Origin: a virus | Taxonomy: Duplodnaviria > Heunggongvirae > Uroviricota > Caudoviricetes | Strand: one strand, 5' to 3' | Virus record (IMG/VR): IMGVR_UViG_3300038548_000082 | Coordinates: 30,889-94,888 of that record | DNA: 64,000 bases | Part shown: positions 2,919 to 26,600 of the stretch, in pieces | How the letters are laid out: each line of letters opens with the position of its first letter | Numbering within the stretch: position 1 is the stretch's first letter | The notes under the pieces: model-generated | Told to the model about the DNA's origin: nothing | What the model saw: the letters and a program-made list of their open reading frames with translations, nothing else | The model's database searches: none | Program-made: the position numbers and the translations under genes

Positions 2919-3421
2919 ACAGTATTGTACAGCACTACGCTGGTTCCTTATCTTATGGGACCAACTTACCCACTTCGGATGTAGATATTCGAGGGGTATT
3001 CTGTGCTGAGCCTAAGAACATTCGTACACCCTTCTACCCTGTACGTGAAGTCACACTACAGGATGAAGAGGATGGTAAGTTATACGAGCTTAGTACATAC
3101 ATGCATCTATACACTCAAGGTAATCCTAATATCTTAGAGACCTTGTGGGTAGACAATACAGATATCATTCAAGGTAGCGATGTTTACTCCTACCTACGAG
3201 GCTATCGTACAGACTTGCTAAGTTCTAAGGTAGCCTTTACCTTTAGTGGTTATGCTATCAGTCAGTTGAAGCGTATCAAAGGTCATAACAAGTGGATAAC
3301 CCAAGAGCAACGTGGGTATGCTAAACTTAGGGCTTCATTACGTTCTGGTGATATTTCTGAGAACCAGATAGTATACCACTTCGGAGAAAAGACTCTAAAT
3401 AAGGTTAAGGAAACAAAATGA
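2900..3421 (+). CDS. predicted nucleotidyltransferase, N-terminal half (pfam10127-like), split gene
   Basis: Motif GSxxYGxxxxxSDVDxRGV typical of pol-beta-fold NTases; stop overlaps HEG start (ATGA). Confidence 0.55.
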   Translation: MQVDELNSIVQHYAGSLSYGTNLPTSDVDIRGVFCAEPKNIRTPFYPVREVTLQDEEDGKLYELSTYMHLYTQGNPNILETLWVDNTDIIQGSDVYSYLRGYRTDLLSSKVAFTFSGYAISQLKRIKGHNKWITQEQRGYAKLRASLRSGDISENQIVYHFGEKTLNKVKETK

Positions 3422-4053
3422 AGTATTATGTGTACACGCTGTCTGATAATCACAAGATTTTTTATATAGGTAAGGGTTCGGGGGACAGGATGTATCGACA
3501 TCTTAAAAAGGTTAAAAGAGGGGCTACAACGGACAATCACCACCTTGACAATAAACTGCAAAAGATGTTACGCGATGGTGTGCAAATCTCATACAACAAG
3601 GTGTATGAAACTGGTGATGAAGGTCTTGCTTATGCTCATGAAAGGGAGCTAGTTGCTAAGGTGGGACTTTCTAATCTCTGTAATATACAAGCAGGGGGTT
3701 ATGGTGGTAACAGTCCCTCACAAGAGACTAGAGACAAAATTAGTGCATCCAAAAAGAGGAAGCCATTGACAGAGGCACACAAACAGAAGTTACGAGAAGC
3801 CAAACTAGGGATAAAACAGACACAGGAAACAAAGGATAAGCGGTCTCTTTCACTGAAAGGTAAGCCACAAACCGATAAACAAAAGGCATCAAACCACAAA
3901 AGGGGTCTTAAGGGTAGAAAACTTACCGAGGAGCACAAGCAGAAGCTACGGGATGCGAAGTTGAAAAACCCGACTAAATACTGGCTAGGAAAAGAAATCC
4001 CAGAAGAAACTAAACAGAAGATATCAACTACTTTAAAGGGGACTGAGAAATGA
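3418..4053 (+). CDS. GIY-YIG homing endonuclease with NUMOD3 repeats
   Basis: KYYVY...IFYIGKGSGDRMYRH GIY-YIG motif; C-terminal repeated KGxKxxEEHKQKLR NUMOD3-like units. Confidence 0.8.
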   Translation: MKYYVYTLSDNHKIFYIGKGSGDRMYRHLKKVKRGATTDNHHLDNKLQKMLRDGVQISYNKVYETGDEGLAYAHERELVAKVGLSNLCNIQAGGYGGNSPSQETRDKISASKKRKPLTEAHKQKLREAKLGIKQTQETKDKRSLSLKGKPQTDKQKASNHKRGLKGRKLTEEHKQKLRDAKLKNPTKYWLGKEIPEETKQKISTTLKGTEK

Positions 4054-4727: not shown

Positions 4728-4984
4728 GAGGAGGGTTCGCAATGGGTGCTGGAGGATTGAGCTTAGCTTGGGCAGTTAAAGCTACCGCAGGTTATCGACT
4801 TGAAAACTATGATGGTGCTTTTATTGTCTACCCCGGTGCTGCTGCTGATTGCAAATCCTACTGTATTCAAGAGTCATTAGAAGCAGTTGTTATTAACGAA
4901 AAAACAGACCAAATAACCTTGGAGAAATACTATGACGCAACAGGAAAAAGGTACATCAATCCTAACTCGAACGGTTATTTTTAG
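4715..4984 (+). CDS. hypothetical protein
   Basis: ORF track. Confidence 0.3.
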   Translation: MLELRGGFAMGAGGLSLAWAVKATAGYRLENYDGAFIVYPGAAADCKSYCIQESLEAVVINEKTDQITLEKYYDATGKRYINPNSNGYF

Positions 4985-5621
4985 TGGGGGTACGATGGTA
5001 CATGTACGTCCTCATTTTAGTTTGTGTGCTCCAGCTTATGGTAAGGTGGGGAGATCCATAGGCGATTTGTTGACATCATGTACTGGTTTTAATAAAGGTT
5101 CACACCTTATCGAAGTCCTCAGTACAAATATGGCTGGTGGTAACCACGGTATTGAAACCAACAACGACCTTGATACAGCTTTGAGTGGGGTTCTGGCAGA
5201 CCCTTTAACCAAAGTTATTGTTATGGCTGCTGCTGTTTGTGACTTCGAGCCACATCATTTAGAAAACTTTAAAATGATTACTCATGACTTCGGAAAGACT
5301 GAAGAACGTCTTAGTTCACAAGACAGCTACTCACTAACGCTAATACCTTCTGCCAAGATCCTTCAACGTATTAAACAGGAACGTCCTGATATCTTTCTGG
5401 TTAGTTTCAAAACTACCTCTGACGAGGACGTGACAGCTTTGATAAGTAAGTCTAAGCAGAACATGAGTGTGACAGAAGCAGATGTGGTCTTTGGTAATGA
5501 TATAAAACGCCATTTTAACCTGTTAGTTAGTGGGGAAAGTATTACCTCTCTTGATAGATCGGGATGTGTGTCTGAGTTGGTTGGTATTCTAAAAGATGTT
5601 GTTGAGAAGTTCGAGGTATGA
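4932..5621 (+). CDS. CoaB-like (DFP / phosphopantothenoylcysteine synthetase family) protein
   Basis: Alignable by eye to E. coli Dfp CoaB domain: TVIFSGGT..VRPHFS..APAYGKVG vs RVLITAGPT..VRYISNHSSGKMG; AAAVCDF vs CAAVADY; NDI vs NDV. Confidence 0.5.
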   Translation: MTQQEKGTSILTRTVIFSGGTMVHVRPHFSLCAPAYGKVGRSIGDLLTSCTGFNKGSHLIEVLSTNMAGGNHGIETNNDLDTALSGVLADPLTKVIVMAAAVCDFEPHHLENFKMITHDFGKTEERLSSQDSYSLTLIPSAKILQRIKQERPDIFLVSFKTTSDEDVTALISKSKQNMSVTEADVVFGNDIKRHFNLLVSGESITSLDRSGCVSELVGILKDVVEKFEV

Positions 5622-5682
5622 CATTAGCCGGTATACCACTCAAGTGGATTCTCATTATGGCCTCAAGGGGGTTTTGATTATC

Positions 5683-5753
5683 CGCTCAAGCGATTTCTCA
5701 TATACGACTCAAGCGATTTCTGATTCACGCCTCAAGCGATTTCTCATATACGG
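5683..5753. repeat. three tandem direct repeats (~23 bp, core CTCAAGCGATTTCT)
   Basis: Core at 5685-5698, 5708-5721, 5731-5744; degenerate copy at 5661. Confidence 0.7.
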
Positions 5754-5799
5754 GTTTACACGTTTTTACACGAGAATTTGCTTTGAAAAGTGGATTTTT

Positions 5800-5900
5800 A
5801 CGAATACGAATGAGAATCATTATCAAACGCGAATGATTATCATTCAAGGTGTGAATACGAATCATTATCATTATCAAACACGAATAAGAATCATTAGCAT
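5800..5900. repeat. AATACGAAT...AATCATT repeat family (4 copies)
   Basis: Repeated AATACGAATgagAATCATTATCAAAC units; inverse of repeats at 13229-13386. Confidence 0.65.
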
Positions 5901-6014
5901 TTAGAAAACACCGCCCACTCTCTCTTCCTCTCTGATGAGATTCCGCTTAGACTTCCCTGCCTACCCCCTCTCAACAAGGCGAACTTCTTTCGCCCTCTCT
6001 CAAGTAGTGGGGCT

Positions 6015-6042
6015 ATCTTAACAGGCTGATAGCAGCTGTCAA
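6015..6042 (-). promoter_or_regulatory. sigma70-like promoter on minus strand (TTGACA-16-TAAGAT) reading leftwards into ORF-free repeats
   Basis: Reverse complement of 6015-6042 gives TTGACAgctgctatcagcctgtTAAGAT; part of 35-bp perfect inverted repeat. Confidence 0.5.
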
Positions 6043-6277
6043 CACTTTATTAAAAAGAATTTAAAATACTTTATTAGTAATGAGAATCATTCGCATTCGC
6101 TAAATAACGCCCACCTTCCCCTCCTCCGTAGTCAGAATGTATAGAGATCATAACATACTGATTAGCCCCGTCAACCACTAATTACAACTAATCACAAATA
6201 AACCTAAATTAAATTACCTATATAAGAAGCAACAACAAATCAAAAGTATTTTAAATTCTTTTTAATAAAGTGTTGAC
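6038..6277. repeat. 35-bp perfect inverted repeat (arms 6038-6072 and 6243-6277) carrying divergent promoters
   Basis: gtcaacactttattaaaaagaatttaaaatacttt vs its exact reverse complement. Confidence 0.8.
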
Positions 6278-6300
6278 TCTCTCTGTAGCTTTGTTAAGAT
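6273..6300 (+). promoter_or_regulatory. sigma70-like promoter (TTGACT-16-TAAGAT)
   Basis: Consensus boxes upstream of ORF 6340. Confidence 0.6.
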
Positions 6301-6339
6301 AGCACCACTTAAACAAAACGACTAAACAGGTACAAGCGA

Positions 6340-6645
6340 ATGATCACTAAAACCTCTATTAATACAACTGTTATTCTAAAGCTTTTAAAAGCCTTTCGTG
6401 AAGCTCAAAAACACGGAATAGCCCATGTTAGGAATAGGAAAGGAAACGCCTTTTTAGCTGTTAGAAAATTCATTGTTAACGGTAAAGTTTTTTTCCAAGT
6501 GTTAGACAAACATGGTAACAATGTTAAAAGGTTGATAACTTCAATGGTTTGCTCTTTTATGAATGCTGATATTGTTTCTCATAATGTGGCTGGCCTTTTA
6601 GTGGATCGTTTAGCCTACCCTTTCCAATTAGGGCAAAGAGCTTAA
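6340..6645 (+). CDS. hypothetical early protein
   Basis: ORF track; own promoter and conserved leader. Confidence 0.5.
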   Translation: MITKTSINTTVILKLLKAFREAQKHGIAHVRNRKGNAFLAVRKFIVNGKVFFQVLDKHGNNVKRLITSMVCSFMNADIVSHNVAGLLVDRLAYPFQLGQRA

Positions 6646-6652
6646 AAAGTTC

Positions 6653-6681
6653 TTGACAGCTAAATAGATACCCTGTAAATT
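6653..6681 (+). promoter_or_regulatory. sigma70-like promoter (TTGACA-17-TAAATT)
   Basis: Sequence boxes. Confidence 0.5.
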
Positions 6682-6711
6682 ACAAACTCAATTAATTAAA
6701 AGGTTTAGAAA

Positions 6712-6855
6712 ATGACTAATTCAGCGATGCAAAAAATCCGTAAACATCAAAAGCCAAAGACTAACAAGGATCTAGTCAAAGAGCATAAGAGCACAATTCG
6801 CAAGGCGAGAAAAAACCGCCATAATCTTTGGATTATCAAAGGAGATTTATTATAA
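6712..6855 (+). CDS. hypothetical small basic protein (47 aa)
   Basis: ATG after promoter; stop overlaps next start (TAATG). Confidence 0.3.
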   Translation: MTNSAMQKIRKHQKPKTNKDLVKEHKSTIRKARKNRHNLWIIKGDLL

Positions 6856-7145
6856 TGACTAATTTTCTAAACCGTAATGAAGTAGACGCCATTTTATTCG
6901 ACTTACAAGGTCAAATGGTAAGTGTTGACTTTATCAAAAAAGATGGAACAAAACGTAAACTTAACGGACAATTAGTACCTAGCCCCGGTAGCCATAATGG
7001 GCATAGTAATCTATTCACTATTGCGCTAGCTAGTAGCAAAAAGGACAATAAAGCATTTCGTTCTGCTAGTCGTGATAAGATTACGCGAATTGCTGGCAAG
7101 GGTAAAGTTTTTGCTGTACGTAGTAGCCTAGCAAGCTTGATCTAA
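6855..7145 (+). CDS. hypothetical protein
   Basis: Internal ATG with GGAG RBS preferred over ORF-track start 6828. Confidence 0.5.
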   Translation: MTNFLNRNEVDAILFDLQGQMVSVDFIKKDGTKRKLNGQLVPSPGSHNGHSNLFTIALASSKKDNKAFRSASRDKITRIAGKGKVFAVRSSLASLI

Positions 7146-7223
7146 GAGGTTTTAGCCCTTAGCCTATGCGATTGTATAGGCTAATACTAAACCCTTTTAA
7201 ACCGCCTTATAGGACGTTCTACG

Positions 7224-7577
7224 ATGTTTGACGATACCACATTAAAAGCAATACATTGTTATAAATCCTTTGAGCAAGATATAAGCCACAATTACAGTTT
7301 TGACAGAAAAGTTGTTATTTTAAAAAGTGTTGACGGCAGCTATAGATTTTGCTATAAACGTGCATTAGACCAAGGTATACGCGCTTTTGATAGTTGCTTA
7401 ATTGTGAGTAGTTCAAACACTATTACCAGTGTTTACACTGTACCTAGTAAGAGGCGGCAAAAAATAGCTAAACAGCTACTATTAGTAGCACGTTTAACAC
7501 TTGGTAGTGTTTACCATAACGACCATTTAACGGTTAGCGGTAAACTATGGCGAGATAGTGTAGAAAACTTAAAATAA
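7224..7577 (+). CDS. hypothetical protein
   Basis: ORF track; contains internal promoter-like TTGACG-17-TATAAA at ~7327. Confidence 0.5.
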   Translation: MFDDTTLKAIHCYKSFEQDISHNYSFDRKVVILKSVDGSYRFCYKRALDQGIRAFDSCLIVSSSNTITSVYTVPSKRRQKIAKQLLLVARLTLGSVYHNDHLTVSGKLWRDSVENLK

Positions 7578-7581
7578 AGTG

Positions 7582-7609
7582 TTGACAGCTACTATCAACC
7601 TGTTAAGAT
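7582..7609 (+). promoter_or_regulatory. sigma70-like promoter (AAGTGTTGACA-16-TAAGAT) + conserved leader
   Basis: Sequence boxes. Confidence 0.6.
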
Positions 7610-7641
7610 AGCTACAACTTAAACAAAGAGAGCAAACAACC

Positions 7642-8325
7642 ATGACTAAACTTACATTAAAAGCTGCTAAAAAATTCGGTGTCGTTACTAAAGGCAATAG
7701 CAAAATTCATGGTTCTACATTCTCTACTGATCCTTATCGTTGCAAGGTGGGATCTAAGCTTGTCAATGTCGAAGGTAGCACTTGCTCTAATTGCTACGCT
7801 CTTAAGCTTGCTAAAGTTTACCCAAGTGCGGCTAAGTCATGGTCCGATAACTTAGACTTATTTAGGGGCGCTGTTTATACTGGTGAGTTGCTAGAATGGT
7901 GTGAAGCAATCGCACATCAAATCAAAATGATTAGCAATCTAAAAGTTAAAAAAGGCGACAAAGGCGCTATGTTTCATCGGTGGTTTACAGCTGGTGATTT
8001 AGACAGTATGGATATGTTGCGCGCTTTTGTTAAAGTGGCTCAATTATTACCTGAAATCGAGTTTTGGCTACCAACACGAGAAAAGGCACTTGTTAGCCAA
8101 TATAAAAACGGCCTTGGTGTTGTCCCTAGTAACATGGTAATACGTCTCTCAAGCGCAATAATAGACGCTAGACCAATACTAGCAGCTAACACTAGCACTA
8201 CGCACAATAAAGGCGCTAAATCATACGGTTTTAAATGCCCAGCTCAAAAGACTAGCGGCAATTGTAACGATTGTACAACATGCTGGAATTCAGACATTAA
8301 AAACATTTCTTATGAAATACACTAA
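7642..8325 (+). CDS. hypothetical Cys-rich (putative zinc-binding) protein
   Basis: ORF track 227 aa; CxxC...C clusters. Confidence 0.5.
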   Translation: MTKLTLKAAKKFGVVTKGNSKIHGSTFSTDPYRCKVGSKLVNVEGSTCSNCYALKLAKVYPSAAKSWSDNLDLFRGAVYTGELLEWCEAIAHQIKMISNLKVKKGDKGAMFHRWFTAGDLDSMDMLRAFVKVAQLLPEIEFWLPTREKALVSQYKNGLGVVPSNMVIRLSSAIIDARPILAANTSTTHNKGAKSYGFKCPAQKTSGNCNDCTTCWNSDIKNISYEIH

Positions 8326-8333
8326 ATAAGTGT

Positions 8334-8362
8334 TTACAAGCCATACTGCACAATGTAGTATG
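8334..8362 (+). promoter_or_regulatory. promoter-like TTTACA-17-TAGTAT overlapping terminator hairpin
   Basis: taagtgTTTACA resembles cassette -35 consensus. Confidence 0.4.
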
Positions 8363-8370
8363 GCTTTATT
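8340..8370 (+). terminator. rho-independent terminator
   Basis: GCCATACT-loop-AGTATGGC followed by TTTATT. Confidence 0.6.
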
Positions 8371-8394
8371 AATCACTAGTAAGGAAGTAAGGAT

Positions 8395-8619
8395 ATGTCA
8401 TTCAGTAGAGATCAAAAGTTTTGCGGTAAATGCGGTAAACCTTGCGAGGTTATCACTATTGACGATGGCATAGGTAGCCACGAATTTTGGGGTAGTGTGT
8501 CAATTCACCATGATTATATTACCGTATCGGATTGCTGTGAGAGTGAACAGTATTTTGATGAAATAGAAGCTTTTGAGGAGCTAGGTGATAGCCACTTACA
8601 AATTGATTTAAAATTGTAA
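8395..8619 (+). CDS. small zinc-ribbon-like protein
   Basis: CGKCGKPC...DCC motif. Confidence 0.45.
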   Translation: MSFSRDQKFCGKCGKPCEVITIDDGIGSHEFWGSVSIHHDYITVSDCCESEQYFDEIEAFEELGDSHLQIDLKL

Positions 8620-8626
8620 TTAAGTG

Positions 8627-8655
8627 TTGACAAGTTAAAAACCGCTTGATAAGAT
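8627..8655 (+). promoter_or_regulatory. sigma70-like promoter (TAAGTGTTGACA-17-TAAGAT)
   Basis: Sequence boxes; stop codon TAA embedded in extended -35. Confidence 0.6.
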
Positions 8656-8687
8656 AGCTACACATTAAACGAAGCGAGTACAAAGTA

Positions 8688-8975
8688 ATGATATATTCAA
8701 CCATTACAACTGTTAAGAAAACTATTAACGTATTACCTCATAAAGTGCCAGCTATCAAAGATGCAGCTGCGAGGGGTGAGCAAGTTTTCTTCACTAATAG
8801 TGGCTATAATGCTAACAAAGGCACGGTACTCTTTGATGGTGGCTTAAATTATCATGTGTATGGTGGTAAACTGGGTCTAAGTCAAGAAACCATTGAACAA
8901 TTACAAGCTAAAGGCTTGGGTATTCTGGACACAACAAAAGGCTTTTTTCAATTCGCGTATTATGAAAATAAGTAA
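8688..8975 (+). CDS. hypothetical protein
   Basis: ORF track. Confidence 0.5.
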   Translation: MIYSTITTVKKTINVLPHKVPAIKDAAARGEQVFFTNSGYNANKGTVLFDGGLNYHVYGGKLGLSQETIEQLQAKGLGILDTTKGFFQFAYYENK

Positions 8976-8983
8976 ATAAATAC

Positions 8984-9011
8984 TTGCTAATAGCTGTCAG
9001 AGTGTTAAGAT
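8984..9011 (+). promoter_or_regulatory. sigma70-like promoter (TTGCTA-16-TAAGAT)
   Basis: Sequence boxes + conserved leader. Confidence 0.55.
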
Positions 9012-9043
9012 AGCTACAACTTAAACAGAAAGAGTATAAGACA

Positions 9044-9436
9044 ATGAACAACCCAAACATGATTAAAACAGCCCGTAATATCCTAGAAACTTCTATCAAT
9101 GCCGTAGATGCTAGCCCTAGCGATTACACGCTAACAGAGCTAAAGGAGCTTATGGCTGAAATTCTAGACAACACAGAGGTTGACTATTGTCTAGAGTTAG
9201 ACGGTTTTGGTGAGGTTCGTTTAATTCATTCAGATGATATGGCTGAAATCTGGACCGAATCACTACTTGAGCAAATTAAAGACTGTTATGAACTTGATAA
9301 GATTCCCGCCTTTGTTTCTATTGATTGGGAACAGACCGTCGAAAATTGCAAGATTGACGGCATGGGTCACCACTTTTCTAGTTATGATGGCAACGAATAC
9401 AGCTCAGGGGACTGGTATATATTCAGAACTAACTAA
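9044..9436 (+). CDS. hypothetical acidic protein
   Basis: ORF track. Confidence 0.5.
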   Translation: MNNPNMIKTARNILETSINAVDASPSDYTLTELKELMAEILDNTEVDYCLELDGFGEVRLIHSDDMAEIWTESLLEQIKDCYELDKIPAFVSIDWEQTVENCKIDGMGHHFSSYDGNEYSSGDWYIFRTN

Positions 9437-9459
9437 ACCAAGTTATTTTAACAAAGTGC

Positions 9460-9488
9460 TTTACATTGTGAGAGCACTTGATTAAGAT
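9460..9488 (+). promoter_or_regulatory. promoter (TTTACA-17-TAAGAT) with inverted repeat AAGTGCT/AGCACTT in spacer
   Basis: Sequence. Confidence 0.5.
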
Positions 9489-9520
9489 AGCTACAACTTA
9501 AACAAAACGAGTACAGCTCA

Positions 9521-9604
9521 ATGATTAATCTAAATAATGTAGTTAAAGGTGTTTCTTGGGGTTCTATCTTGTTGACAGTAGTCACCGTAGCTTTAGGGGC
9601 CTAA
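9521..9604 (+). CDS. 27-aa hydrophobic peptide
   Basis: ATG directly after conserved leader; single TM-like segment. Confidence 0.3.
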   Translation: MINLNNVVKGVSWGSILLTVVTVALGA

Positions 9605-9608
9605 AACA

Positions 9609-9749
9609 ATGTTAGATACTGCAATTACGCTAACAGGTCTATTTGTCTTTGTAATGGTTTTCGCTATTGGTGGTAGTGTTATTACCAACAAACTGTTAAA
9701 ATCGCTTAAAACGCCTCTCAGGGGCGCTACAAAGCATCCAACTAATTAA
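9609..9749 (+). CDS. 46-aa small membrane peptide
   Basis: ATG 5 nt after previous stop; hydrophobic N-terminus, basic C-terminus. Confidence 0.3.
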   Translation: MLDTAITLTGLFVFVMVFAIGGSVITNKLLKSLKTPLRGATKHPTN

Positions 9750-9837
9750 GAGAATGTATAGAAAAAGCTTGCTATTAGGATTAGTAAGCTTTAATATGTA
9801 GTTTCTTTCAACAGTAAAGCAAAAGCGAGTGCAATTT

Positions 9838-10068
9838 ATGAGTAATGTCGTGTTAGTAGCAACTAGTTATACAGGTTTTTTAAATTCTCAAAAAGCTGTC
9901 AAGGAAGCTTTTGATAATGACAAGGATTTCATTATTAAAAACGTTACAGACAGGTACTATGGTAAACCCTGTAATAAGTCGGATTTGTTACAAGCTACAG
10001 AGTATAATTGTGCTCAAATTTATTATGGTAAGAATAACGCTAAAGTGGTTTGTATTTATTTCAAATAA
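9838..10068 (+). CDS. hypothetical protein
   Basis: ORF track (start moved to MSNVVL). Confidence 0.45.
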   Translation: MSNVVLVATSYTGFLNSQKAVKEAFDNDKDFIIKNVTDRYYGKPCNKSDLLQATEYNCAQIYYGKNNAKVVCIYFK

Positions 10069-10071
10069 GTG

Positions 10072-10099
10072 TTGCATTGTTCTCAAAAGTCTGTAATAT
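10072..10099 (+). promoter_or_regulatory. promoter (TTGCAT-16-TAATAT), leader family 2 (CTTACTTACTTA)
   Basis: Sequence. Confidence 0.5.
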
Positions 10100-10133
10100 A
10101 GATCTTACTTACTTAGACAAGCAAGGCAGCGAC

Positions 10134-10253
10134 ATGAAACAGCATACTAAAGACATACTAGGCGGATTCGTTCAAGTGGTTGAAGTGGCTGACCATGGCA
10201 TAGTAGTTAGCTTGGTTGTCAAGTGTTTATTTCTTACAATTATTATTAAATAA
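10134..10253 (+). CDS. 39-aa small hydrophobic protein
   Basis: Internal ATG downstream of promoter. Confidence 0.35.
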   Translation: MKQHTKDILGGFVQVVEVADHGIVVSLVVKCLFLTIIIK

Positions 10254-10366
10254 GCCGCCACTTTGAGAGAGTGCGAACAGGTCGCTAGTAGGGATTCCAA
10301 ATCTCGAACGCGCCTTATTAGGTATGCTCAAAGCTGGCGCAATTATTATTAAATAGGGTTGACATT

Positions 10367-10618
10367 ATGAAAGCTTTAGTAACTATTAATTCAGTATTGA
10401 CTGTTATCATTAGTGGTCGTGGGTGTCAAGAAATTGACGATAAAACAGCTAAGTTAGTTAGTGCTGGCAATCCTGATAATAAGATTAATAGCTGGTATGT
10501 TGAATATGAGAAAAAGTCAAATACAGCGCCAGTTATCAGTATCCATAAAAACGCTAGTTTGGATCTTTACAAACAAGCGTATGAGACAATCGAAAACTTC
10601 CATAAATATCGTAAATAA
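10367..10618 (+). CDS. hypothetical protein
   Basis: ORF track. Confidence 0.5.
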   Translation: MKALVTINSVLTVIISGRGCQEIDDKTAKLVSAGNPDNKINSWYVEYEKKSNTAPVISIHKNASLDLYKQAYETIENFHKYRK

Positions 10619-10621
10619 GTG

Positions 10622-10648
10622 TTGACAGCTTAAGCCAAGGTCTATAAT
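10622..10648 (+). promoter_or_regulatory. promoter (TTGACA-15-TATAAT), leader family 2
   Basis: Sequence. Confidence 0.6.
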
Positions 10649-10690
10649 ATAGGCCTTACTTACTTAAACAAGCAATCAGGATTACAGAAT

Positions 10691-11086
10691 ATGAGCATTT
10701 TTACTAAATCAACAGTTATCGCATCCTACCCAGCATATGACATTATTAAGCGCGAAAAAGCTAGACAAGGTTATGTCAATCTTGTAGCTGGTGAGACCTT
10801 GGTAAAGTCTGACCATTTAGGCAGCTACAAAATCAATAGTGCGGTATCTTATGCCCTAGAGAATAATCAAGATCCTATTGAATCGTATAATCAGTGCCTG
10901 TCTAATGGTGACGATACCCATTGGATTAACGCTCAAGCGTCTAGCCTATCAGATTGCAAGGAAGCTAAAAAAGTTCATATTGAGATTGACTTTGAAACAA
11001 CTTATATGTTTGAGGGTAAATGGTTCAATATTAAGCCATCTGCTAATAACAACCTAAGGTTAGTACCGGCAACTTTTATCTTGTAA
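10691..11086 (+). CDS. hypothetical protein
   Basis: ORF track. Confidence 0.5.
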   Translation: MSIFTKSTVIASYPAYDIIKREKARQGYVNLVAGETLVKSDHLGSYKINSAVSYALENNQDPIESYNQCLSNGDDTHWINAQASSLSDCKEAKKVHIEIDFETTYMFEGKWFNIKPSANNNLRLVPATFIL

Positions 11087-11093
11087 TTAAGTG

Positions 11094-11122
11094 TTGACAA
11101 GGGGCGCAAGCCCCTATACTAT
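11094..11122 (+). promoter_or_regulatory. promoter TTGACA-[AGGGGCGCAAGCCCCT hairpin]-TATACT
   Basis: Sequence; GNRA-loop hairpin inside spacer. Confidence 0.55.
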
Positions 11123-11153
11123 AGCTACTCATTAAACAAAACGAGCAAAGATT

Positions 11154-11531
11154 ATGAAAACCTTTATTTTCTGGAATCCTGAAAAAGTTAGCGGTAACAC
11201 TACTCTCAACGGTTATACGTGTACCGTAGGGGAGCTACAAACCTTTGAAGCGGAGGAGAGTATTAGTATTAGTAGCACTCTATCGTTAGTTGATGAGGAG
11301 CAAGCCAAGGCGTTTGTAGAAGCTGTTTTATGTGAAGGTGACTTAGAGCTACGCTATGCTGAAATAATAGACTTCCAGAAGCTCTTATCAGTAATGGAGT
11401 GCTTGATTGATACAGTACAGAGTACTACAGACCTAGAAAATGTCTATGATGACAGCAAAGAACAGTCTTTTAGCTGGCAGGAAGTTATGGAACAGTACCA
11501 AGTATTAAAAGTACTTGCTAAGGTTGAATAA
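11154..11531 (+). CDS. hypothetical acidic protein
   Basis: ORF track. Confidence 0.5.
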   Translation: MKTFIFWNPEKVSGNTTLNGYTCTVGELQTFEAEESISISSTLSLVDEEQAKAFVEAVLCEGDLELRYAEIIDFQKLLSVMECLIDTVQSTTDLENVYDDSKEQSFSWQEVMEQYQVLKVLAKVE

Positions 11532-11534
11532 GTG

Positions 11535-11563
11535 TTGACAAGGGGCGCAAGCCCCTATACTAT
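11535..11563 (+). promoter_or_regulatory. promoter TTGACA-[hairpin]-TATACT (duplicate of 11094 module)
   Basis: Near-identical 60-bp module. Confidence 0.55.
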
Positions 11564-11594
11564 AGCTACTCATTCAACAAAACGAGCAAAGACT

Positions 11595-11858
11595 ATGAAA
11601 ACTTCAAAAACCGTATTGTCAGACGCGATTTTCTACTGCATGCAAAGTGAAAAGCTTTGGGACCATAACGACCAAAAATTTAAGGTTTGTGTTGACGTTT
11701 TGCAGCTGCCTTGCTTGATTGATGGGGTGACTGTTAGCGGTCAAAGCATCGTTGACTATGCTAGTGACATGAAAGAGCTGTATGCTGAGGGTAGCTACAG
11801 CCCTAGCGAGTTTCATGACATGTTTATAAGTGTTGAGAATTTCTTAGAGATCCAATAA
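11595..11858 (+). CDS. hypothetical protein
   Basis: Internal ATG after promoter/leader; ORF-track start 11532 would read through promoter. Confidence 0.5.
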   Translation: MKTSKTVLSDAIFYCMQSEKLWDHNDQKFKVCVDVLQLPCLIDGVTVSGQSIVDYASDMKELYAEGSYSPSEFHDMFISVENFLEIQ

Positions 11859-11865
11859 ATAAGTG

Positions 11866-11896
11866 TTGACAAGGGGCTAGCGCCCCTATACTATGG
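11866..11896 (+). promoter_or_regulatory. promoter TTGACA-[AGGGGCTAGCGCCCCT palindrome]-TATACT
   Basis: Sequence. Confidence 0.55.
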
Positions 11897-11928
11897 TTAC
11901 TCTTTAAACGAATACAGGAATTAAACAA

Positions 11929-12099
11929 ATGTACTGCATTTACAGTCTAAACCATACTAGCCAGAAAACATATCTCACAGACTTGGATGGCGAGCGTGTA
12001 ATCTACACAAAGGAGCTAGCAGAGCAACAACTAGAAATCTTTGAACAATTACCGTATAAGTCTTTGTATGTTACTTGGCATATGATCAAATATAGCTAA
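11929..12099 (+). CDS. 56-aa hypothetical protein
   Basis: ATG after leader family 1 variant. Confidence 0.4.
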   Translation: MYCIYSLNHTSQKTYLTDLDGERVIYTKELAEQQLEIFEQLPYKSLYVTWHMIKYS

Positions 12100-12125
12100 T
12101 ACAATCCAGCGAAAGCCTACAAAAC

Positions 12126-12155
12126 CTCTAGTGGTTATCTGCTAGGGGTTTTTCT
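12126..12155 (+). terminator. rho-independent terminator ending early cassette
   Basis: CCTCTAG-loop-CTAGGGG + TTTTT. Confidence 0.6.
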
Positions 12156-12181
12156 ACATCTAGTGCCTACCAACAGTCTAT

Positions 12182-12218
12182 ACCACAACATGTAGTATGA
12201 TACCATATGTTGTGGTAC
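12182..12218. repeat. 11-bp inverted repeat hairpin (TACCACAACAT / ATGTTGTGGTA); partial third copy at ~12311
   Basis: Sequence; also CTACATCTAGTG direct repeats at 12154 and 12237. Confidence 0.6.
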
Positions 12219-12887
12219 AAGTGAACCAATAACACTACATCTAGTGGTATATAAAAACTCTGTTTAATATAACAAAACGTTCTAGGTTAATTTATAACCA
12301 CTACCACTACATGTTGTGGTTTGCAAGTTATTTTTAACTATTATGAACTGTATTCTAAAATAGTGTGGTACAATCTCTATAAGGGTTTTTATAAGGTCTT
12401 ACAAAGCAGTTAAACGCACTATAAAAAGGTTTGTAAGCGAGTATAGCAGCTCCTCAAGAGAATAGATATACCCATAAGGCATAGCCAAAGGGTATAGAGT
12501 GTAAATACTATAAGAGACGTTTAAAGGCCTTTAAAGAGTATGATATTAAATAGGCCTTTTAAAACGTTTTAAGTAGAGTAAAACTTAATCACTCTAGTAT
12601 CGGCTTTGCCTACTACCTCTATTAATACTAGCCTTATAGCGAATAGGCGAGCCGTTAAAGCTCTTATAAGCGAGTTTGCCTAGCATCCTATAAAGAGGGT
12701 AGGGTATAAGCTAACATTGCTTACAGGCTACTATAGGGGCTATGAGAGTTGTCAAGTGTTATTAGCTGCTAATATGAGTTGTAAATTCTTCTACATTGTC
12801 TCTTATTCTCTCTTATGGGTTAGACCCCCTCACATCTTTCCACATATGTCAAGCTTTATTTTAATTATTTCCTCTCGTTAATAAGTG

Positions 12888-13340
12888 TTGACAATACCCT
12901 ACCAGCATGCTAGGCGTATCACTCTAGCTGCTAAGCAATTACCATGCCAGAACTTTCCAATAGTGTGAGCATACTAACAGCCCCTTGTCAACCCTTAATT
13001 AATCCTTGACAATACCCTTGCCCTATGCTAGGGCTATTCCAATCCTCATAGCACACACAAGGCCCCTTGTCAACCCTTGACATTATGTTATCAGTATGCT
13101 ATGAACATCGGTATAGTGTGAGCATACTCTACACTCTATGTCAACCCTTGACAGTATGCTGATAGTATGCTAGTGATGATGAGGTGTTGACAAGGAGTTA
13201 ACAGTATGCTAGCCACAGCATGAGAATGATTCGTATTAGCCATATGATAATGATTCGCATTCAACTAATAATACTTGACAAGGCGATGATAGTATGATAG
13301 TGATAATTAATAGTTGACAAGGCATTGATAGTATGCTAGG
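12888..13340. repeat. array of ~10 units TTGACA-N11-(G/C)(T/C)ATGCTAG, 7 direct and 3 inverted
   Basis: Direct units at 12888, 13006, 13077, 13148, 13187, 13275, 13314; inverted (CCCCTTGTCAACCCTT ... GAGCATACT) at ~12966-12993, 13046-13078, 13121-13150. Confidence 0.75.
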
Positions 13341-13386
13341 AGGATGATGAGAATGATAGTGCGAATGATAATGATTCGTATTCAAT
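13229..13386. repeat. AATGATTCG(T/C)ATT repeat family (inverse orientation of 5800-5900 family)
   Basis: GCGAATGATAATGATTCGTATTC (13362-13384) is 20/23 reverse-complement match to 5853-5875. Confidence 0.65.
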
Positions 13387-13591
13387 AAAAATATTCTTAA
13401 AAACCTATTGACTTTTGATATGGTTTTGTGGTACGGTTAAACACCTATACCGATAAGTTCAAATATTCAAAAGGTACTTCAAAGGGTTAACAACGTTAGG
13501 AGGATATTCTCCCTATAGGAGACAGGAGAAACCCCTTTCAATTGCTGATCGGGGTTATAAAAATTTGGAATTGTGAGGAAGAGGTGTACAA

Positions 13592-14733: not shown

Positions 14734-14963
14734 TTATATGTGTATTTACGTCTACCTTTAATAAAGTTCTTATTTGATTTTATCACAATTAACATTACAT
14801 CTACGGGTAGGTGTCGATGAAGTTGATACTGAAGGTGTTTGGTGTTACAAAACTTGGGTACTGTGATTATAAGGATTCCTCCTATCACACTCTCCGTGAT
14901 GTCAGCTCTCCACACCCCTGTCAACTTTAAGACGTTTTTTACATCTTGTCTAGTCTTTATCAT
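14718..14963 (-). CDS. hypothetical protein
   Basis: ORF track. Confidence 0.4.
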   Translation of the reverse strand: MIKTRQDVKNVLKLTGVWRADITESVIGGILIITVPKFCNTKHLQYQLHRHLPVDVMLIVIKSNKNFIKGRRKYTYKWRVV

Positions 14964-15641: not shown

Positions 15642-15937
15642 TATGAAGTCTCCTTAGGGTACACTATCACCTCAGCCTCGTCTCTAGCTTCCTTAGCTAC
15701 TAACAACGCCTTAGCGTATTCACAGGCTTTGATAATAGTGTCTAAGGAACTTGGGTTATCAGTCCTAATCTCTAAGAAAGGGGTACGAACTTCTTCCTCA
15801 AGATTTTCTCTAGACACAAGATCACCTGCTTCACGTTCAATGTTACTTGTTGCGAGGACTATAGCAGCCACTCCACTTGATTTGTAAATACCTGCACTTA
15901 CTACTGTCTTACCATCACCTAATTCTAAGGTAAACAT
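15641..15937 (-). CDS. hypothetical protein
   Basis: ORF track. Confidence 0.45.
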   Translation of the reverse strand: MFTLELGDGKTVVSAGIYKSSGVAAIVLATSNIEREAGDLVSRENLEEEVRTPFLEIRTDNPSSLDTIIKACEYAKALLVAKEARDEAEVIVYPKETS

Positions 15938-15966
15938 ATTAATTCTCCTTATGGTTAAAGTTATCT

Positions 15967-16449
15967 CTACAGCCCTTGCTGTACATAGAAGTCATTAAGT
16001 TTAAACTTACTCTTAGCTTCACCCAAGATAGTGAAAGCTTCATGATACTTCTGCACACGTAGTGCATCCTTAACTGACAGCCCCTTTAAACGTGTGATAC
16101 AAGAGTTATGCTCCAGATCCTTACGCTTAACTCGTATGGCATCTAAGTTAGTTGTGATACCTGCAATGTAGGTCTCAAGATAGTCATCACCATCTTTGTG
16201 GGTTAACAAGTCTAATGCACCACGAACACGAGAGCTAAACCCCTCTACCAGAAGATACCCCATAGTGATTTGACTATCCTCAATCACATCATGTAACACA
16301 GCGATAGTTGCTAGCTGTGTATCAAACATTAATTGATTCATCAAATGCAGTGGATGTAAGATATAAGGTTTACCACCCTTATCGAACTGTCCTGTGTGAG
16401 CTTTTGTGGCTATCTCAATAGCTGTTGCTAGTTGTTCCATTTCGTTCAT
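15967..16449 (-). CDS. HD-domain (p)ppGpp hydrolase-like (small alarmone hydrolase / SpoT-hydrolase-like)
   Basis: KGGKPYILHPLHLMNQL and AVLHDVIEDS motifs = RelA/SpoT HD hydrolase signature. Confidence 0.7.
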   Translation of the reverse strand: MNEMEQLATAIEIATKAHTGQFDKGGKPYILHPLHLMNQLMFDTQLATIAVLHDVIEDSQITMGYLLVEGFSSRVRGALDLLTHKDGDDYLETYIAGITTNLDAIRVKRKDLEHNSCITRLKGLSVKDALRVQKYHEAFTILGEAKSKFKLNDFYVQQGL

Positions 16450-16455
16450 ATATAA

Positions 16456-16854
16456 TTACTCCTTAAAAGCGTTATTAATAACTCTGGTAGTTCGATAAAG
16501 GTCGCTATCTATATAGGCGATACCACCAGTCCGTTTAACTAGGTCAACAACAGCTTTAAGACTTCTCAACTGGAATTCATCGAATCCTTCTGGAATCACA
16601 TGTAAGATGGTGACCTTACCTTTGGTATTAGCTGAATCTACTACTTCCGCTATACTGAAAACACCTGTCATCTTTTTGGTGATAACATAAAGGTGAATAT
16701 CACACTCCATTTCTTTTTCATACTCTTCTATCGCTTGACAATCTGGTGTCCAATCCTTAACAACTGGATTGAAGGATGATACCCCTAGGGACAGAATAAG
16801 ATAATCCCTCCATGACGTACCAGCACAAGTTCCACCTAAAAATACTTTACTCAT
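16456..16854 (-). CDS. hypothetical protein (possible nucleoside 2-deoxyribosyltransferase-like Rossmann fold)
   Basis: N-terminal VFLGGTCAGTSW glycine-rich start; weak resemblance only. Confidence 0.4.
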   Translation of the reverse strand: MSKVFLGGTCAGTSWRDYLILSLGVSSFNPVVKDWTPDCQAIEEYEKEMECDIHLYVITKKMTGVFSIAEVVDSANTKGKVTILHVIPEGFDEFQLRSLKAVVDLVKRTGGIAYIDSDLYRTTRVINNAFKE

Positions 16855-16855
16855 A

Positions 16856-17110
16856 TTAACCTCCTAATAATTCAACATACCCTTCCAAGCTTCCTAACAT
16901 AGCCTCATCCAGAAAGGTATACAAGCGTTTAAGACCTTCAGGATCTAATGTGACGCTAGTCAAAACCCTCTCACCATTTGTCATGATCTCGATATTAAGC
17001 TCATCAATATTAGGCATGTGTGTAAGAGTGATAGTATCCTCTGGAGATAGGTTACAGGGTAGCGTTAAGACACTAATGTCACTCATCTTGTTTCTCCTTA
17101 ATTTGCTCAA
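16856..17110 (-). CDS. hypothetical protein
   Basis: ORF track. Confidence 0.4.
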   Translation of the reverse strand: MSKLRRNKMSDISVLTLPCNLSPEDTITLTHMPNIDELNIEIMTNGERVLTSVTLDPEGLKRLYTFLDEAMLGSLEGYVELLGG

Positions 17111-17291
17111 TCATGTGATATTCTACCATGATTTTGTGATATCTGCAAGTAAATTCATGCTCCATATAATCAGGAGTCTTGGTACAGCAATCACAAGACC
17201 CTATGACATCTACCAGCATCTTTAACTTCCTATCAGTAAGGTCCGTCATCAACATCCCCACTGGACTTAGAAGCTTTGAAGGGTTCACCAT
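17079..17291 (-). CDS. hypothetical Cys-rich protein
   Basis: ORF track. Confidence 0.35.
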   Translation of the reverse strand: MVNPSKLLSPVGMLMTDLTDRKLKMLVDVIGSCDCCTKTPDYMEHEFTCRYHKIMVEYHMIEQIKEKQDE

Positions 17292-17481
17292 TACCCATCA
17301 TAAGGATTGTACCTACCATCACCTCCTCTACTGTACGACAGGATTGTGTGACCCTCTGTGGGGTTGCTCTCTTAAGGGCTTCCATACGTTCTTTGTATTC
17401 CCTATGAGCTTTATAACGTGTGTAGACTATACCTACCCCAGTTAGCACCAACAACGCTAAAAACACTGTTAAAGTAACCAT
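17233..17481 (-). CDS. small membrane protein (N-terminal TM)
   Basis: ORF track; hydrophobic N-terminus. Confidence 0.4.
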   Translation of the reverse strand: MVTLTVFLALLVLTGVGIVYTRYKAHREYKERMEALKRATPQRVTQSCRTVEEVMVGTILMMGNGEPFKASKSSGDVDDGPY

Positions 17482-17483
17482 AT

Positions 17484-17651
17484 CTACTTCTCCTTCTTAG
17501 CTGCTGCAACTAACTGATTAGCTAATTCCATTAGAGCGAAGTTAAGATTAAAAGGCTTGTCCTTCTTCTCTACTCCATCTTCAAGAGACAAAGTGATCTT
17601 CACACCCTCTGCCTCATCTTCAAAAATCTTTGTATATGTCTTCTCTGTCAT
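17484..17651 (-). CDS. 55-aa acidic protein
   Basis: Minus-strand ATG at 17651; stop abuts next start; below ORF-track cutoff. Confidence 0.3.
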   Translation of the reverse strand: MTEKTYTKIFEDEAEGVKITLSLEDGVEKKDKPFNLNFALMELANQLVAAAKKEK

Positions 17652-25031: not shown

Positions 25032-26600
25032 ATGAGTGCTAATGTTTACAGACCCCAAGAGGGTGCTCAAGAAATAGCTATGAATGCTCCACAGGACATC
25101 GTAATTTATGGTGGGGCTGCTGGTTCTGGTAAAACGCACTTAATGCTACTTAGACCACTATTACAAATTCACGATCCAAAATTTAATGCTATCTTCTTCC
25201 GTAGAACAGGCCCTCAGTTATCTGGTGCTGGTTCTGTATGGGATGAGGCTAAACAACTTTATTCGGAATTCGGAGCACGTATCCGAGAGAATGATAGAGA
25301 GATCATCTTCCCCTCAGGTGCGAAGATTAAGTTTTCTCACATGGAACACGAAAAGAACAAAATAGACCACCAAGGTAAGCAGTATACTCATGTCTACTTT
25401 GATGAAGGTACACACTTTACTCAAGGCCAAATAACATATCTTATGTCTCGACTGCGTTCGGCAGCTGAGGTAAAGAGTTCTATGTTTATTTCTTGTAACC
25501 CTGATCCTGATAGCTTCATCGCCCAATTAATTGATTGGTGGTTAGATGAAGATGGCTTCCCAGATAAAAAGAAGTCAGGAGTTACCAAGTATTATGGTAG
25601 TGTCAAGAACGACATATACTTTACAGATACTGAAGAGGAGATGGCTGAACTGTATCCACAAGTTTGCTGGGTATGGAATCCGTTAACAGAAAAAAAGATT
25701 TACGTACCACCAAAGACTATCACCTTTATAGGTGGGACTATCTTTGATAACCCTGCCTTGATTATGGCTAACCCTAACTATCTTGCTGAGCTTAACGCTT
25801 TGCCTCAGATAGAGAAGGATCGTTTATTACATGGTAACTGGTATGCTAGACCTGAAGGTTCCTCACATTTCCAGAGGAAATGGTTAACAGTTGTAGATCG
25901 AGTTCCAGAGTCAGCTATTAATTGCAGAGCTTGGGATAAGGCAGCTACAGAACCTTCTGAAAAGAATACTCACCCAGATTATACAGCCTCTATAAGAATG
26001 GCTAAAGATCGTCATGGTTTCTTCTACTTGATAGGAGACTTTCAGGAAGATAACTATGATAAAAAAGATTGTAAACAGAATAAGGTACTTGGACGATTCA
26101 GAGAACGTTCCGGTAGGCGAGACGTACTGATACATAAACAAACGGAACACGATGGTAGTAGTTGCACTGTAGTCTTTTCACAAGACCCCGGTTCAGCTGG
26201 TATAACGGAATTCACAGAATCCGCTAAGAAACTTATTTGTGAGGGATACGTGGTTAAAAAAGATCCTATGCCCACACAAAGTGGTAAGCTCACTAGATAC
26301 CTACCTTTTTCAAGTGCAGCAGAGAATGGACTTGTTTACTTAGTCAAAAACACTTTCAACCCTGCAACACTAGAAGCATTCTTTAAGGAGAATGAAGCTT
26401 TTGATGGGGAGAGGTCTAGTGACCACAGGAAAGATGATTGGCCTGATACAGTTGCTTCTGCTTTTAATCACTTATCCTCTGCACGAACAGTTAGATTGGT
26501 ATGTCGTAACCAAAACAGAACGAGTACGATGGCTTCAGAAATACTCGCTACAGAGTCTGTTAAGGTTTCCGATCTTGAACGGATGGATATGAAAATTTAA
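25032..26600 (+). CDS. terL: terminase large subunit
   Basis: Walker A GGAAGSGKT near N-terminus; 522 aa; position upstream of portal. Confidence 0.85.
   Translation: MSANVYRPQEGAQEIAMNAPQDIVIYGGAAGSGKTHLMLLRPLLQIHDPKFNAIFFRRTGPQLSGAGSVWDEAKQLYSEFGARIRENDREIIFPSGAKIKFSHMEHEKNKIDHQGKQYTHVYFDEGTHFTQGQITYLMSRLRSAAEVKSSMFISCNPDPDSFIAQLIDWWLDEDGFPDKKKSGVTKYYGSVKNDIYFTDTEEEMAELYPQVCWVWNPLTEKKIYVPPKTITFIGGTIFDNPALIMANPNYLAELNALPQIEKDRLLHGNWYARPEGSSHFQRKWLTVVDRVPESAINCRAWDKAATEPSEKNTHPDYTASIRMAKDRHGFFYLIGDFQEDNYDKKDCKQNKVLGRFRERSGRRDVLIHKQTEHDGSSCTVVFSQDPGSAGITEFTESAKKLICEGYVVKKDPMPTQSGKLTRYLPFSSAAENGLVYLVKNTFNPATLEAFFKENEAFDGERSSDHRKDDWPDTVASAFNHLSSARTVRLVCRNQNRTSTMASEILATESVKVSDLERMDMKI

Follow-up and report, generated by a model that had tools for sequence, protein, structure and literature searches.

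In bacteriophage T4, the replication origin oriE pairs an early-mode promoter with direct repeats at even spacing, and at oriF and oriG the promoter is accompanied by an A/T-rich unwinding element and an R-loop mediates origin activity. T4 origins lie near points of transcriptional divergence (PMC3016281). Few model phages have known replication origins and early non-coding RNAs, and in large uncultured virulent phages such features have almost never been mapped. Here we analyze a gene-free hub in IMG/VR record IMGVR_UViG_3300038548_000082, within a stretch of 64,000 nt (the window, to which all coordinates refer unless stated otherwise) from a large uncultured virulent phage. The hub fills the gap between a DFP-like gene (4932–5621) and the start of a run of small plus-strand genes (6340–12100), and is a point of transcriptional divergence. 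It is a control region heading the phage early gene cluster, and its conserved core has four parts: back-to-back sigma-70-type early promoters, a predicted RNA of ~112 nt, a variable operator stretch and genome-specific iterons. For comparison we used two distant relatives, L020 (a JGI/IMG-VR contig) and L022 (NCBI contig JBFPEG010000634.1), each ~94 kb, which were found via the first early protein (54% and 47% identity, respectively) and are both syntenic with the window. All three genomes share the same hub layout, namely iterons, short ACACG-type repeats, variable repeats, a C/T-rich tract with ACCGCCCAC, a leftward promoter, A/T-rich DNA (~80 bp in the relatives), a rightward promoter and the early gene. 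All the features listed in an initial annotation of this region are present, far beyond chance, and several of them are redefined below.

The leftward promoter, P_A (6015–6072, minus strand), has the –35 element TTGACA at 6042–6037, a 16-nt spacer and the –10 element TAAGAT at 6020–6015 with a TG extension. An UP-like A/T-rich element (6043–6072) lies upstream, within the left arm (6038–6072) of an inverted repeat, and by our reading this upstream part agrees with the UP-element consensus of E. coli at 16 of the 17 positions that it specifies. The early-cluster promoter, P_R (6243–6309, plus strand), is built in the same way, with an UP-like element at 6243–6272, TTGACT at 6273–6278, a 16-nt spacer and a TG-extended TAAGAT at 6295–6300; the right arm of the repeat spans 6243–6277. 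Both promoters had been proposed in the initial annotation, and both are conserved. The leftward one reads TTGACA-16-TAAGAT in L020 and TTGACT-16-TAAAGT in L022, the rightward one TTGACA-16-TAAGGT and TTGCAA-17-TATAGT, respectively. Each of the small early genes (6340–12100) has its own near-consensus sigma-70 promoter, and the family shares AAtAAGTGTTGACA, a spacer of 16–17 nt, TAnnAT and AGCTAC..TTAAAC. The 15 kb preceding the hub contain no promoter of this family. The core of P_A (6012–6051) is identical at 38 of 40 positions, spacer included, to the promoter of gene 7642–8325 (the 7582 promoter), and over the 35 nt upstream P_A matches P_R exactly. Because P_A differs little from the promoters of real early genes and is kept in all three genomes, we regard it, judging from its sequence, as a genuine member of the phage early-promoter family. 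A further leftward promoter, P_B (6174–6147; TTGACG-16-TATGAT), was absent from the initial annotation.

A purine-rich non-coding element of ~112 nt (5897–6008, minus strand) begins at the predicted P_A start site. It includes a C/T-rich tract (5903–6005) which, as first described, is rich in pyrimidines (69/103; 41 C vs 13 G), and the first ~100 nt of the predicted RNA contain 41 G vs 13 C. It also includes the hairpin GGCGAA-CTTCT-TTCGCC (–6.1 kcal/mol as DNA, z = –4.8), which is real but lies at 5978–5994 rather than at 5969–5985, where it had been placed. Identity across the three genomes is 68–74% for the element, compared with 64–67% for the adjacent gene and 46–63% for the DNA from the element to the iterons. 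The RNAalifold consensus has four helices and 30 pairs, with compensatory change in 9 of the 30, for a structure derived from the same three sequences. Counting one sequence at one pair as a pair position, 91% of pair positions are paired in the consensus structure versus 44–58% with shifted partners, and 0–1 of 500 shuffles reach the observed values. The fold is specific to the strand transcribed from P_A, because it has 23 G-U pair positions; of all pair positions, 91% are paired on this strand versus 67% on the other. Its best-supported parts are a 5-bp hairpin with the loop A-N-GGAA-R and three compensatory pairs, and a long-range helix, UUCGCC/GGGCGG, of which both sides are changed in L022. 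A GGGAGG-type purine motif is single-stranded and kept in all three sequences. A run of U follows the 3' strand of helix 2, and the minus strand has no terminator-like site.

What we observe here are the sequence features, their conservation, strand-specific covariation and an absence of coding potential; that the RNA is made, we infer. Taken together, the data make a conserved early non-coding transcription unit probable. The RNA family is undescribed and known from three genomes. Rfam gave no match at E up to 10 for region 5000–7000, and none in a second gene-free hub described below. A covariance model of the element (R1) detected no second copy in the window, in the upstream DNA or in Pseudaeromonas phage KLEP7, a distant cultured relative.

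The hub had been called free of open reading frames (ORFs). Mechanically defined ORFs do exist, at 5596–5904 (plus strand), 5725–5877 (minus) and 6074–6178 (minus), but the two longer ones are non-coding by codon usage, with scores of –0.34 and –0.17 versus +0.01 to +0.27 for real small genes. The third, of 34 codons, scores +0.14; we rejected it as a gene because it overlaps P_B and would begin before the predicted start site of that promoter. An independent assembly has no gene called at the hub ORFs. We also considered conserved mini-ORFs after the purine run and rejected them, as their lengths and sequences differ between genomes. The stretch that P_A would transcribe is therefore non-coding, as first proposed, and the conserved promoter, element and iterons, with the strand-specific compensatory changes, support the earlier suggestion that it may be an RNA locus.

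P_A points towards an array of five direct repeats (5632–5752) with the core CTCAAGCGATTTCTCAT, in which an iteron unit of 18 bp recurs on a 23-bp pitch; the last three copies are near-identical and the first two degenerate. This is the strongest tandem repeat in the window. Tandem Repeats Finder reports 3.0 copies at 5685–5752 (score 108), and a repeat search shows five in register, so the copy number is five and not three, as the initial annotation had it. The core CTCAAGCGATTTCT is found at no other site in the window. At the homologous position, L020 has three copies of CTCACGAGCTTTTTCAT spaced by 41 and 23 bp, and L022 has four copies of CTCGTAAGGTTTTTCAT spaced by 41, 41 and 23 bp. A frame, CTCnnnnGnnTTTyTCAT (CTCNNNNGNNTTTYTCAT), is common to the three genomes. 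Iterons are thus near-identical inside each genome and different between genomes, while their position is kept. Being genome-specific yet fixed in place, they look like sites co-evolving with a phage-encoded binding protein, and we treat them as candidate binding sites of such a protein. Next to the array, TTTACACG occurs twice as a short direct repeat (5756–5776), with CACGTAAACGCAC...CACACACG as its L020 equivalent. The possibility that the 23-bp repeats form RNA hairpins was dismissed, because the stems are lost in the best-conserved copies.

The stretch between iterons and element holds an array of Fur-box-like operators of the 7-1-7 type (5802–5898; for example TGAGAATCATTATCA at 5811–5825). 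The AATACGAAT..AATCATT repeats listed by the initial annotation are present here, and resolve into five to six partly overlapping 7-1-7 sites. They had been counted with the iterons, but are better described as Fur-type 7-1-7 operators. With the Fur consensus (GATAATGATAATCATTATC; 7-1-7 TGATAATnATTATCA) as quoted in PMC7536154, matches of at least 13/19 numbered 10, against 0.4 expected, and none of 500 shuffles reached 10. The operators match 11–13 of 14 positions of the 7-1-7 consensus and 13–15 of 19 of the classical box. Eight of the nine core sites in the 64 kb fall within this hub (hub 1) or the second gene-free hub (hub 2, 12.1–13.6 kb). One operator, TAAGAATCATTCTCA, lies in hub 1 of L020, and TGAGAATGATTATCA is found in L022; the operator sequence is kept while the iterons change, which argues for a constrained binder, possibly host Fur. 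In hub 1 of L022, a different 17-bp repeat takes the place of the operators.

Like Fur boxes, the hub sites are heptamer inverted repeats, and they are clustered and overlapping in the manner of multi-dimer Fur sites. They differ in position and in sequence. Fur boxes normally sit over the –35/–10 region of the regulated promoter (PMC7536154), whereas the operators lie at +40 to +200 of the strong promoters or upstream of –55, and overlap only a weak TTGAAT-17-GATAAT match (5847–5819). Moreover, one half-site is often CGAAT instead of ATAAT, and the binding protein here is putative.

Hub 2 (12100–13590) is 1.5 kb in size, borders the early cluster on its distal side and carries operators in the opposite orientation to those of hub 1 (13222–13264 and 13343–13385). 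Nine TTGACA-N12-TATGCT(AG) units occur there and nowhere else in the window; their 12-nt spacing does not fit a sigma-70 promoter. Hub 2 also has three back-to-back TGTCAACCCTTGACA pairs, ACCACAACATGTAGT-type palindromes (12179–12320) and a plus-strand pyrimidine tract (12780–12879), and is partly conserved in L022. The L022 contig (94.8 kb) stops in two overlapping Fur-like operators (TGAGAATGATTATCATTATCA, 14770–14790) in its hub-2 equivalent. Either the assembly broke there at a repeat, or genome ends may lie in hub 2.

The perfect inverted repeat had been presented as the key feature of hub 1. Its arms (6038–6072 and 6243–6277) are 100% complementary over 35 nt, with no such match expected by chance. 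They had been said to hold TTGACA; each in fact holds TTGAC, and the sixth –35 base lies just outside (A on the left, T on the right). Similarity between the arms resumes past a diverged spacer, at 6006–6023 and 6292–6309 (17/18). A whole-hub alignment shows that L020 and L022 have no inverted repeat, no third promoter and no insert: their two –35 elements are 78–82 bp apart, versus 230 bp in the window. The difference is accounted for by a lineage-specific insert (6076–6242, minus strand) consisting of an operator copy (6076–6100), a partial copy of the 3' end of the RNA element (6101–6126), P_B and A/T-rich filler. The copied segment is evident as a direct repeat between 5883–5930 and 6079–6126 (75% identity), which covers the 3' part of the element and one operator; covariance model R1 does not match the insert. 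These comparisons indicate that the 35-bp repeat and P_B come from a lineage-specific duplication of ~160 bp, in which an operator, the UP element and a 3' portion of the RNA element were copied, and are not core parts of the hub.

How might such a region function? We tentatively propose that the RNA unit and the iterons form a transcription-activated origin of the T4 oriE type, an interpretation in which every step of the replication role is one that we infer. Host RNA polymerase would fire P_A directly after infection. A G-rich, C-poor RNA would then grow in the direction of the iterons and the A/T-rich DNA of the operators, where it would open or prime the duplex. A phage protein co-evolved with the iterons would assemble on them and recruit the replication machinery. 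Several features are consistent with an origin: an early promoter is aimed at the iterons, whose sequence is uniform inside each genome and varies from one genome to another, the predicted transcript is G-rich, the site is a transcriptional divergence point and the phage has a T4-like gene content. As expected of an iteron origin, there are at least three direct repeats phased by about two helical turns (five copies at 23 bp, with arrays in both relatives). As in T4 origins, promoters (P_A and P_B) are directed into easily unwound DNA. At each of three segment lengths (40, 100 and 200 bp), the segment with the second-lowest duplex stability in the window falls in the hub (6047–6086 and 6178–6277), and 5781–5900 is A/T-rich.

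A number of observations weigh against an origin. Low duplex stability is also found at a divergent promoter region around 20.0–20.2 kb, and is therefore not specific to the hub; nor is hub 1 unique, since hub 2 shares its operators. DnaA boxes are not enriched, since the hub has two matches at up to one mismatch and the background rate is 1.7 per kb (one 8/9 DnaA-box-like match lies at 5764), and hub 1 has no match to the IHF consensus. Neither Pfam nor PHROGs revealed an initiator gene (Rep/O-type) among the flanking or early proteins, and recognisable DNA-metabolism genes lie ~45 kb from the hub. The minus strand shows no intrinsic terminator of the canonical kind. The RNA fold itself is open to question: single-sequence z-scores are weak (–1.2, –2.6 and –0.4), two of the three sequences (window and L020) favour an alternative local 5' hairpin, and the consensus structure was tested on the same three sequences from which it came. 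Finally, the role of the oriE iterons is unestablished even in T4 (PMC3016281).

The main rival to the origin is a trans-acting early regulatory RNA. Here the ~110-nt product of P_A would be a small RNA with its target elsewhere, be it an mRNA of host or phage, the ribosome (bound by an exposed GGAGG-like run) or a protein, and the iterons and operators would control early-region transcription and be unrelated to replication. The conserved promoter and the covarying element fit this idea, as does the single-stranded GGGAGG-type motif of all three sequences. So do the recurrence of the operators beside promoter-like units in hub 2 and the company that the hub keeps. Its upstream neighbour is DFP in the window and DUF7695 in both relatives, so it belongs with the early module, and it travels with the early genes. 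Yet no clear terminator was found, the fold z-scores are weak and no target could be named. Genome-specific iterons kept immediately downstream would also be left unexplained. On balance we consider a trans-acting RNA somewhat less likely than an origin. A link to host iron could coexist with either an origin or a trans-acting RNA. If the TGAnAAT-n-ATTnTCA sites were real Fur boxes, Fur might gate leftward transcription in response to the iron status of the host, or the many boxes on replicating phage DNA might soak up Fur and thereby derepress host iron uptake. The high consensus scores (11–13/14 and 13–15/19), the confinement of eight of nine core sites to the two hubs and a motif that L020 and L022 keep while their iterons change would all suit a constrained host factor. 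But the sites avoid the –35/–10 regions of strong promoters, often have CGAAT where ATAAT is expected and give way to a different, 17-bp repeat in hub 1 of L022; a conserved phage protein could be the binder instead. Such a link seems improbable to us. Its fuller form, in which this ~95-kb phage family brackets its early module with Fur-box arrays, one of them wired to the early RNA and iterons as an iron-gated origin or a Fur sponge, is a little more improbable still.

Other explanations start from the inverted repeat or from the neighbouring operons. Leftward transcription might collide or pair with read-through from the converging rII-to-DFP operon and so act as an insulator or antisense unit that separates two transcription programmes. 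Read-through RNA spanning both arms would give a duplex of ~60 bp that RNase III could cut. In keeping with this, strong terminators were found neither beyond the DFP gene (plus strand) nor on the minus strand, plus-strand RNA from 5995–6320 folds at –88.8 kcal/mol (z = –11), and the 15 kb upstream lack early-family promoters. But the long duplex needs the inverted repeat, which the relatives do not have, and the internal structure conserved in the element goes unexplained, as do the iterons; we think this function very unlikely. The hub could instead be a by-product of recombination between repeated promoter cassettes, with the backward promoter and gene-free DNA as functionless leftovers. 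PeSLs, the promoter-terminator cassettes with stem-loops of T4-like phages (PMC4122927), provide a precedent. P_A is indeed a mosaic of two promoters, with the 35 upstream nt of P_R (35/35) and the core of the 7582 promoter (38/40). Composite hairpin-in-promoter repeats resembling PeSLs (PMC4122927) occur at 11094, 11535 and 11866, and both the inverted repeat and the P_B insert are confined to this lineage. As with PeSLs, small genes of unknown function lie between repeated early promoters that contain stem-loops, and mosaic promoters are consistent with recombination; PeSLs account for cassette shuffling, however, and not for a conserved non-coding element with iterons. Since P_A, the element and the iterons are kept in all three genomes at only ~50% protein identity, recombination fits the inverted repeat and the P_B insert only, and as an account of the whole hub it is most unlikely. 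Equally far-fetched, in our view, is an invertible promoter switch in which the arms are recombination sites around P_B, or an arrangement in which hubs 1 and 2 are the ends of a repeated or first-injected segment. Perfect arms do flank a 170-bp promoter-bearing segment, and a k = 31 assembly is interrupted precisely there, which leaves k-mers unable to fix the orientation of the segment. Likewise, the two hubs bracket the early cluster with oppositely oriented operators, and the relatives' contigs end 5.4–6.5 kb past the first early gene, L022 inside its hub-2 equivalent and L020 still in early genes. Against these ideas, the window has no serine-invertase motif, no recombinase was found among the flanking proteins, and the arms are absent from L020 and L022. 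Assembly by itself would also be expected to end contigs at repeats.

The first early gene (6340–6645, plus strand) encodes a protein of 101 aa and is a conserved neighbour of the hub. The protein has homologues P0050–P0052 at 47–59% identity, in a family of four members. Its AlphaFold2 model (pLDDT 79) consists of a helix, three strands and two helices, without a significant PDB match, and it belongs to no Pfam family. The second early gene (6712–6855) encodes a very basic peptide of 47 aa with 48% identity to its L020 counterpart. The third (6828–7145; 105 aa) is, like the second, conserved with the hub; its product is 77% identical to that of L020 and has a weak Pfam match to WYL_2 / Sm-like beta-barrel proteins (E = 0.004). 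The second and third proteins are candidate operator-, iteron- or RNA-binding factors. Further along the cluster, three early promoters (11089–11134, 11530–11575 and 11861–11900) hold a G+C-rich stem-loop, GGGGCGCAAGCCCC, inside the –35/–10 spacer. Two of these copies appear by eye to be identical over ~46 nt, and a contig of the Logan assembly described next ends at ~11117, in the first copy.

Because the relatives' contigs span 93.8–94.9 kb, we put the genome at ~95 kb, of which the window is about two thirds. It contains 16 tRNA genes (20.8–24.8 kb) and a large terminase gene (25032–26600) with only ~49% identity to those of Aeromonas and rV5-like phages. T4-style genes lie on both sides of the hub: rIIB-like, PNKP and CCA-adding enzyme genes upstream, and RNA ligase, UvrD-type helicase and DNA ligase genes downstream. 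A GIY-YIG / NUMOD3 homing-endonuclease-like gene (3418–4053) lies within the RNA-repair cluster, between RlaP-like and nucleotidyltransferase genes. The window sequence is also present in the Logan assembly of SRR12660648, with complete identity up to base 6067; the contigs break at 6067 and 6248 as a result of the duplicated arms. One upstream phage protein is also present in a JGI sample.

Further relatives of the hub were not detected. DNA searches against 50,697 phage records, near and distant, gave none, and neither did IMG/VR searches that used the proteins on either side of the hub and patterns for the iterons and the promoter; the promoter pattern gave two matches, of which the one inspected (58% GC) is unrelated. 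Two metagenome scans and two genome scans added no relatives, and RNA-motif scans of IMG/VR returned the L020 contig again and nothing else. Homologues of the DFP protein were discarded as a route to synteny, being at most 50% identical and non-syntenic. Vibrio phage eugene and Aeromonas phage 2L372X, reached via the CCA enzyme and large terminase, have no equivalent hub. Phage KLEP7 (L017, OM654377.1) has a 1.6-kb gene-free stretch (15933–17507 of its genome) at a change of gene direction. It carries a perfect 22-nt inverted repeat (16777–16798 / 16913–16934) and three Fur-like sites, one of which, TGAGAATCATTCTCA, is perfectly palindromic. The likeness to the hub is weak, and at 35% GC the Fur-like sites of KLEP7 may be due to chance. 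In an unrelated lineage found via DFP homologues, two contigs (L003, 5215–6225; L004, 1945–3003) share a ~1-kb ORF-free stretch whose first ~650 nt look alike by eye. These stretches then carry tRNA-model matches of 125–131 nt, a size that suggests inserts of roughly 50 nt or more. The matches are not called by ARAGORN, and the upstream part falls in no Rfam family.

The hub is thus a concrete, testable candidate, with a promoter, a conserved element of ~112 nt that is absent from Rfam and apparently co-evolving iterons, in three genomes. Its most eye-catching feature, the perfect inverted repeat, is a recent duplication outside the machinery. Were the operators to bind Fur, the early programme of a lytic phage would be tied to host iron sensing.

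How does the proposed origin compare with those already known? The lambda origin, bound by the O protein, also has genome-specific direct repeats about two helical turns apart, A/T-rich DNA and, as proposed for the hub, a dependence on nearby transcription. Iteron origins of the R6K gamma and lambdoid type similarly place three to five phased repeats beside A/T-rich DNA (for the R6K analogy, see PMC3016281). Unlike those, the hub has no adjacent or surrounding initiator gene that we could find and no enrichment of DnaA boxes, and it belongs to a large virulent phage rather than to a plasmid or temperate phage. R-loop priming is also represented by ColE1 RNA II, which at ~550 nt and with processing by RNase H is unlike the RNA predicted here. 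T4 oriF and oriG resemble the hub in that the promoter could yield a transcript able to remain hybridised (41 G vs 13 C here) and low-stability A/T-rich DNA lies downstream, but theirs are MotA-dependent middle promoters, without iterons. The closest parallel is with T4 oriE. There the repeats are of 12 nt, whereas here they are of 18 bp on a 23-bp pitch; genes like repEA and repEB are not recognised in our phage, and its predicted RNA appears conserved and partly structured. Otherwise, both sites have an early promoter for the host polymerase that needs no phage factors, a non-coding transcript (predicted in our case) and adjoining, evenly spaced direct repeats. Both also lie near a switch in the direction of transcription, and the phage described here has auxiliary genes in the style of T4.

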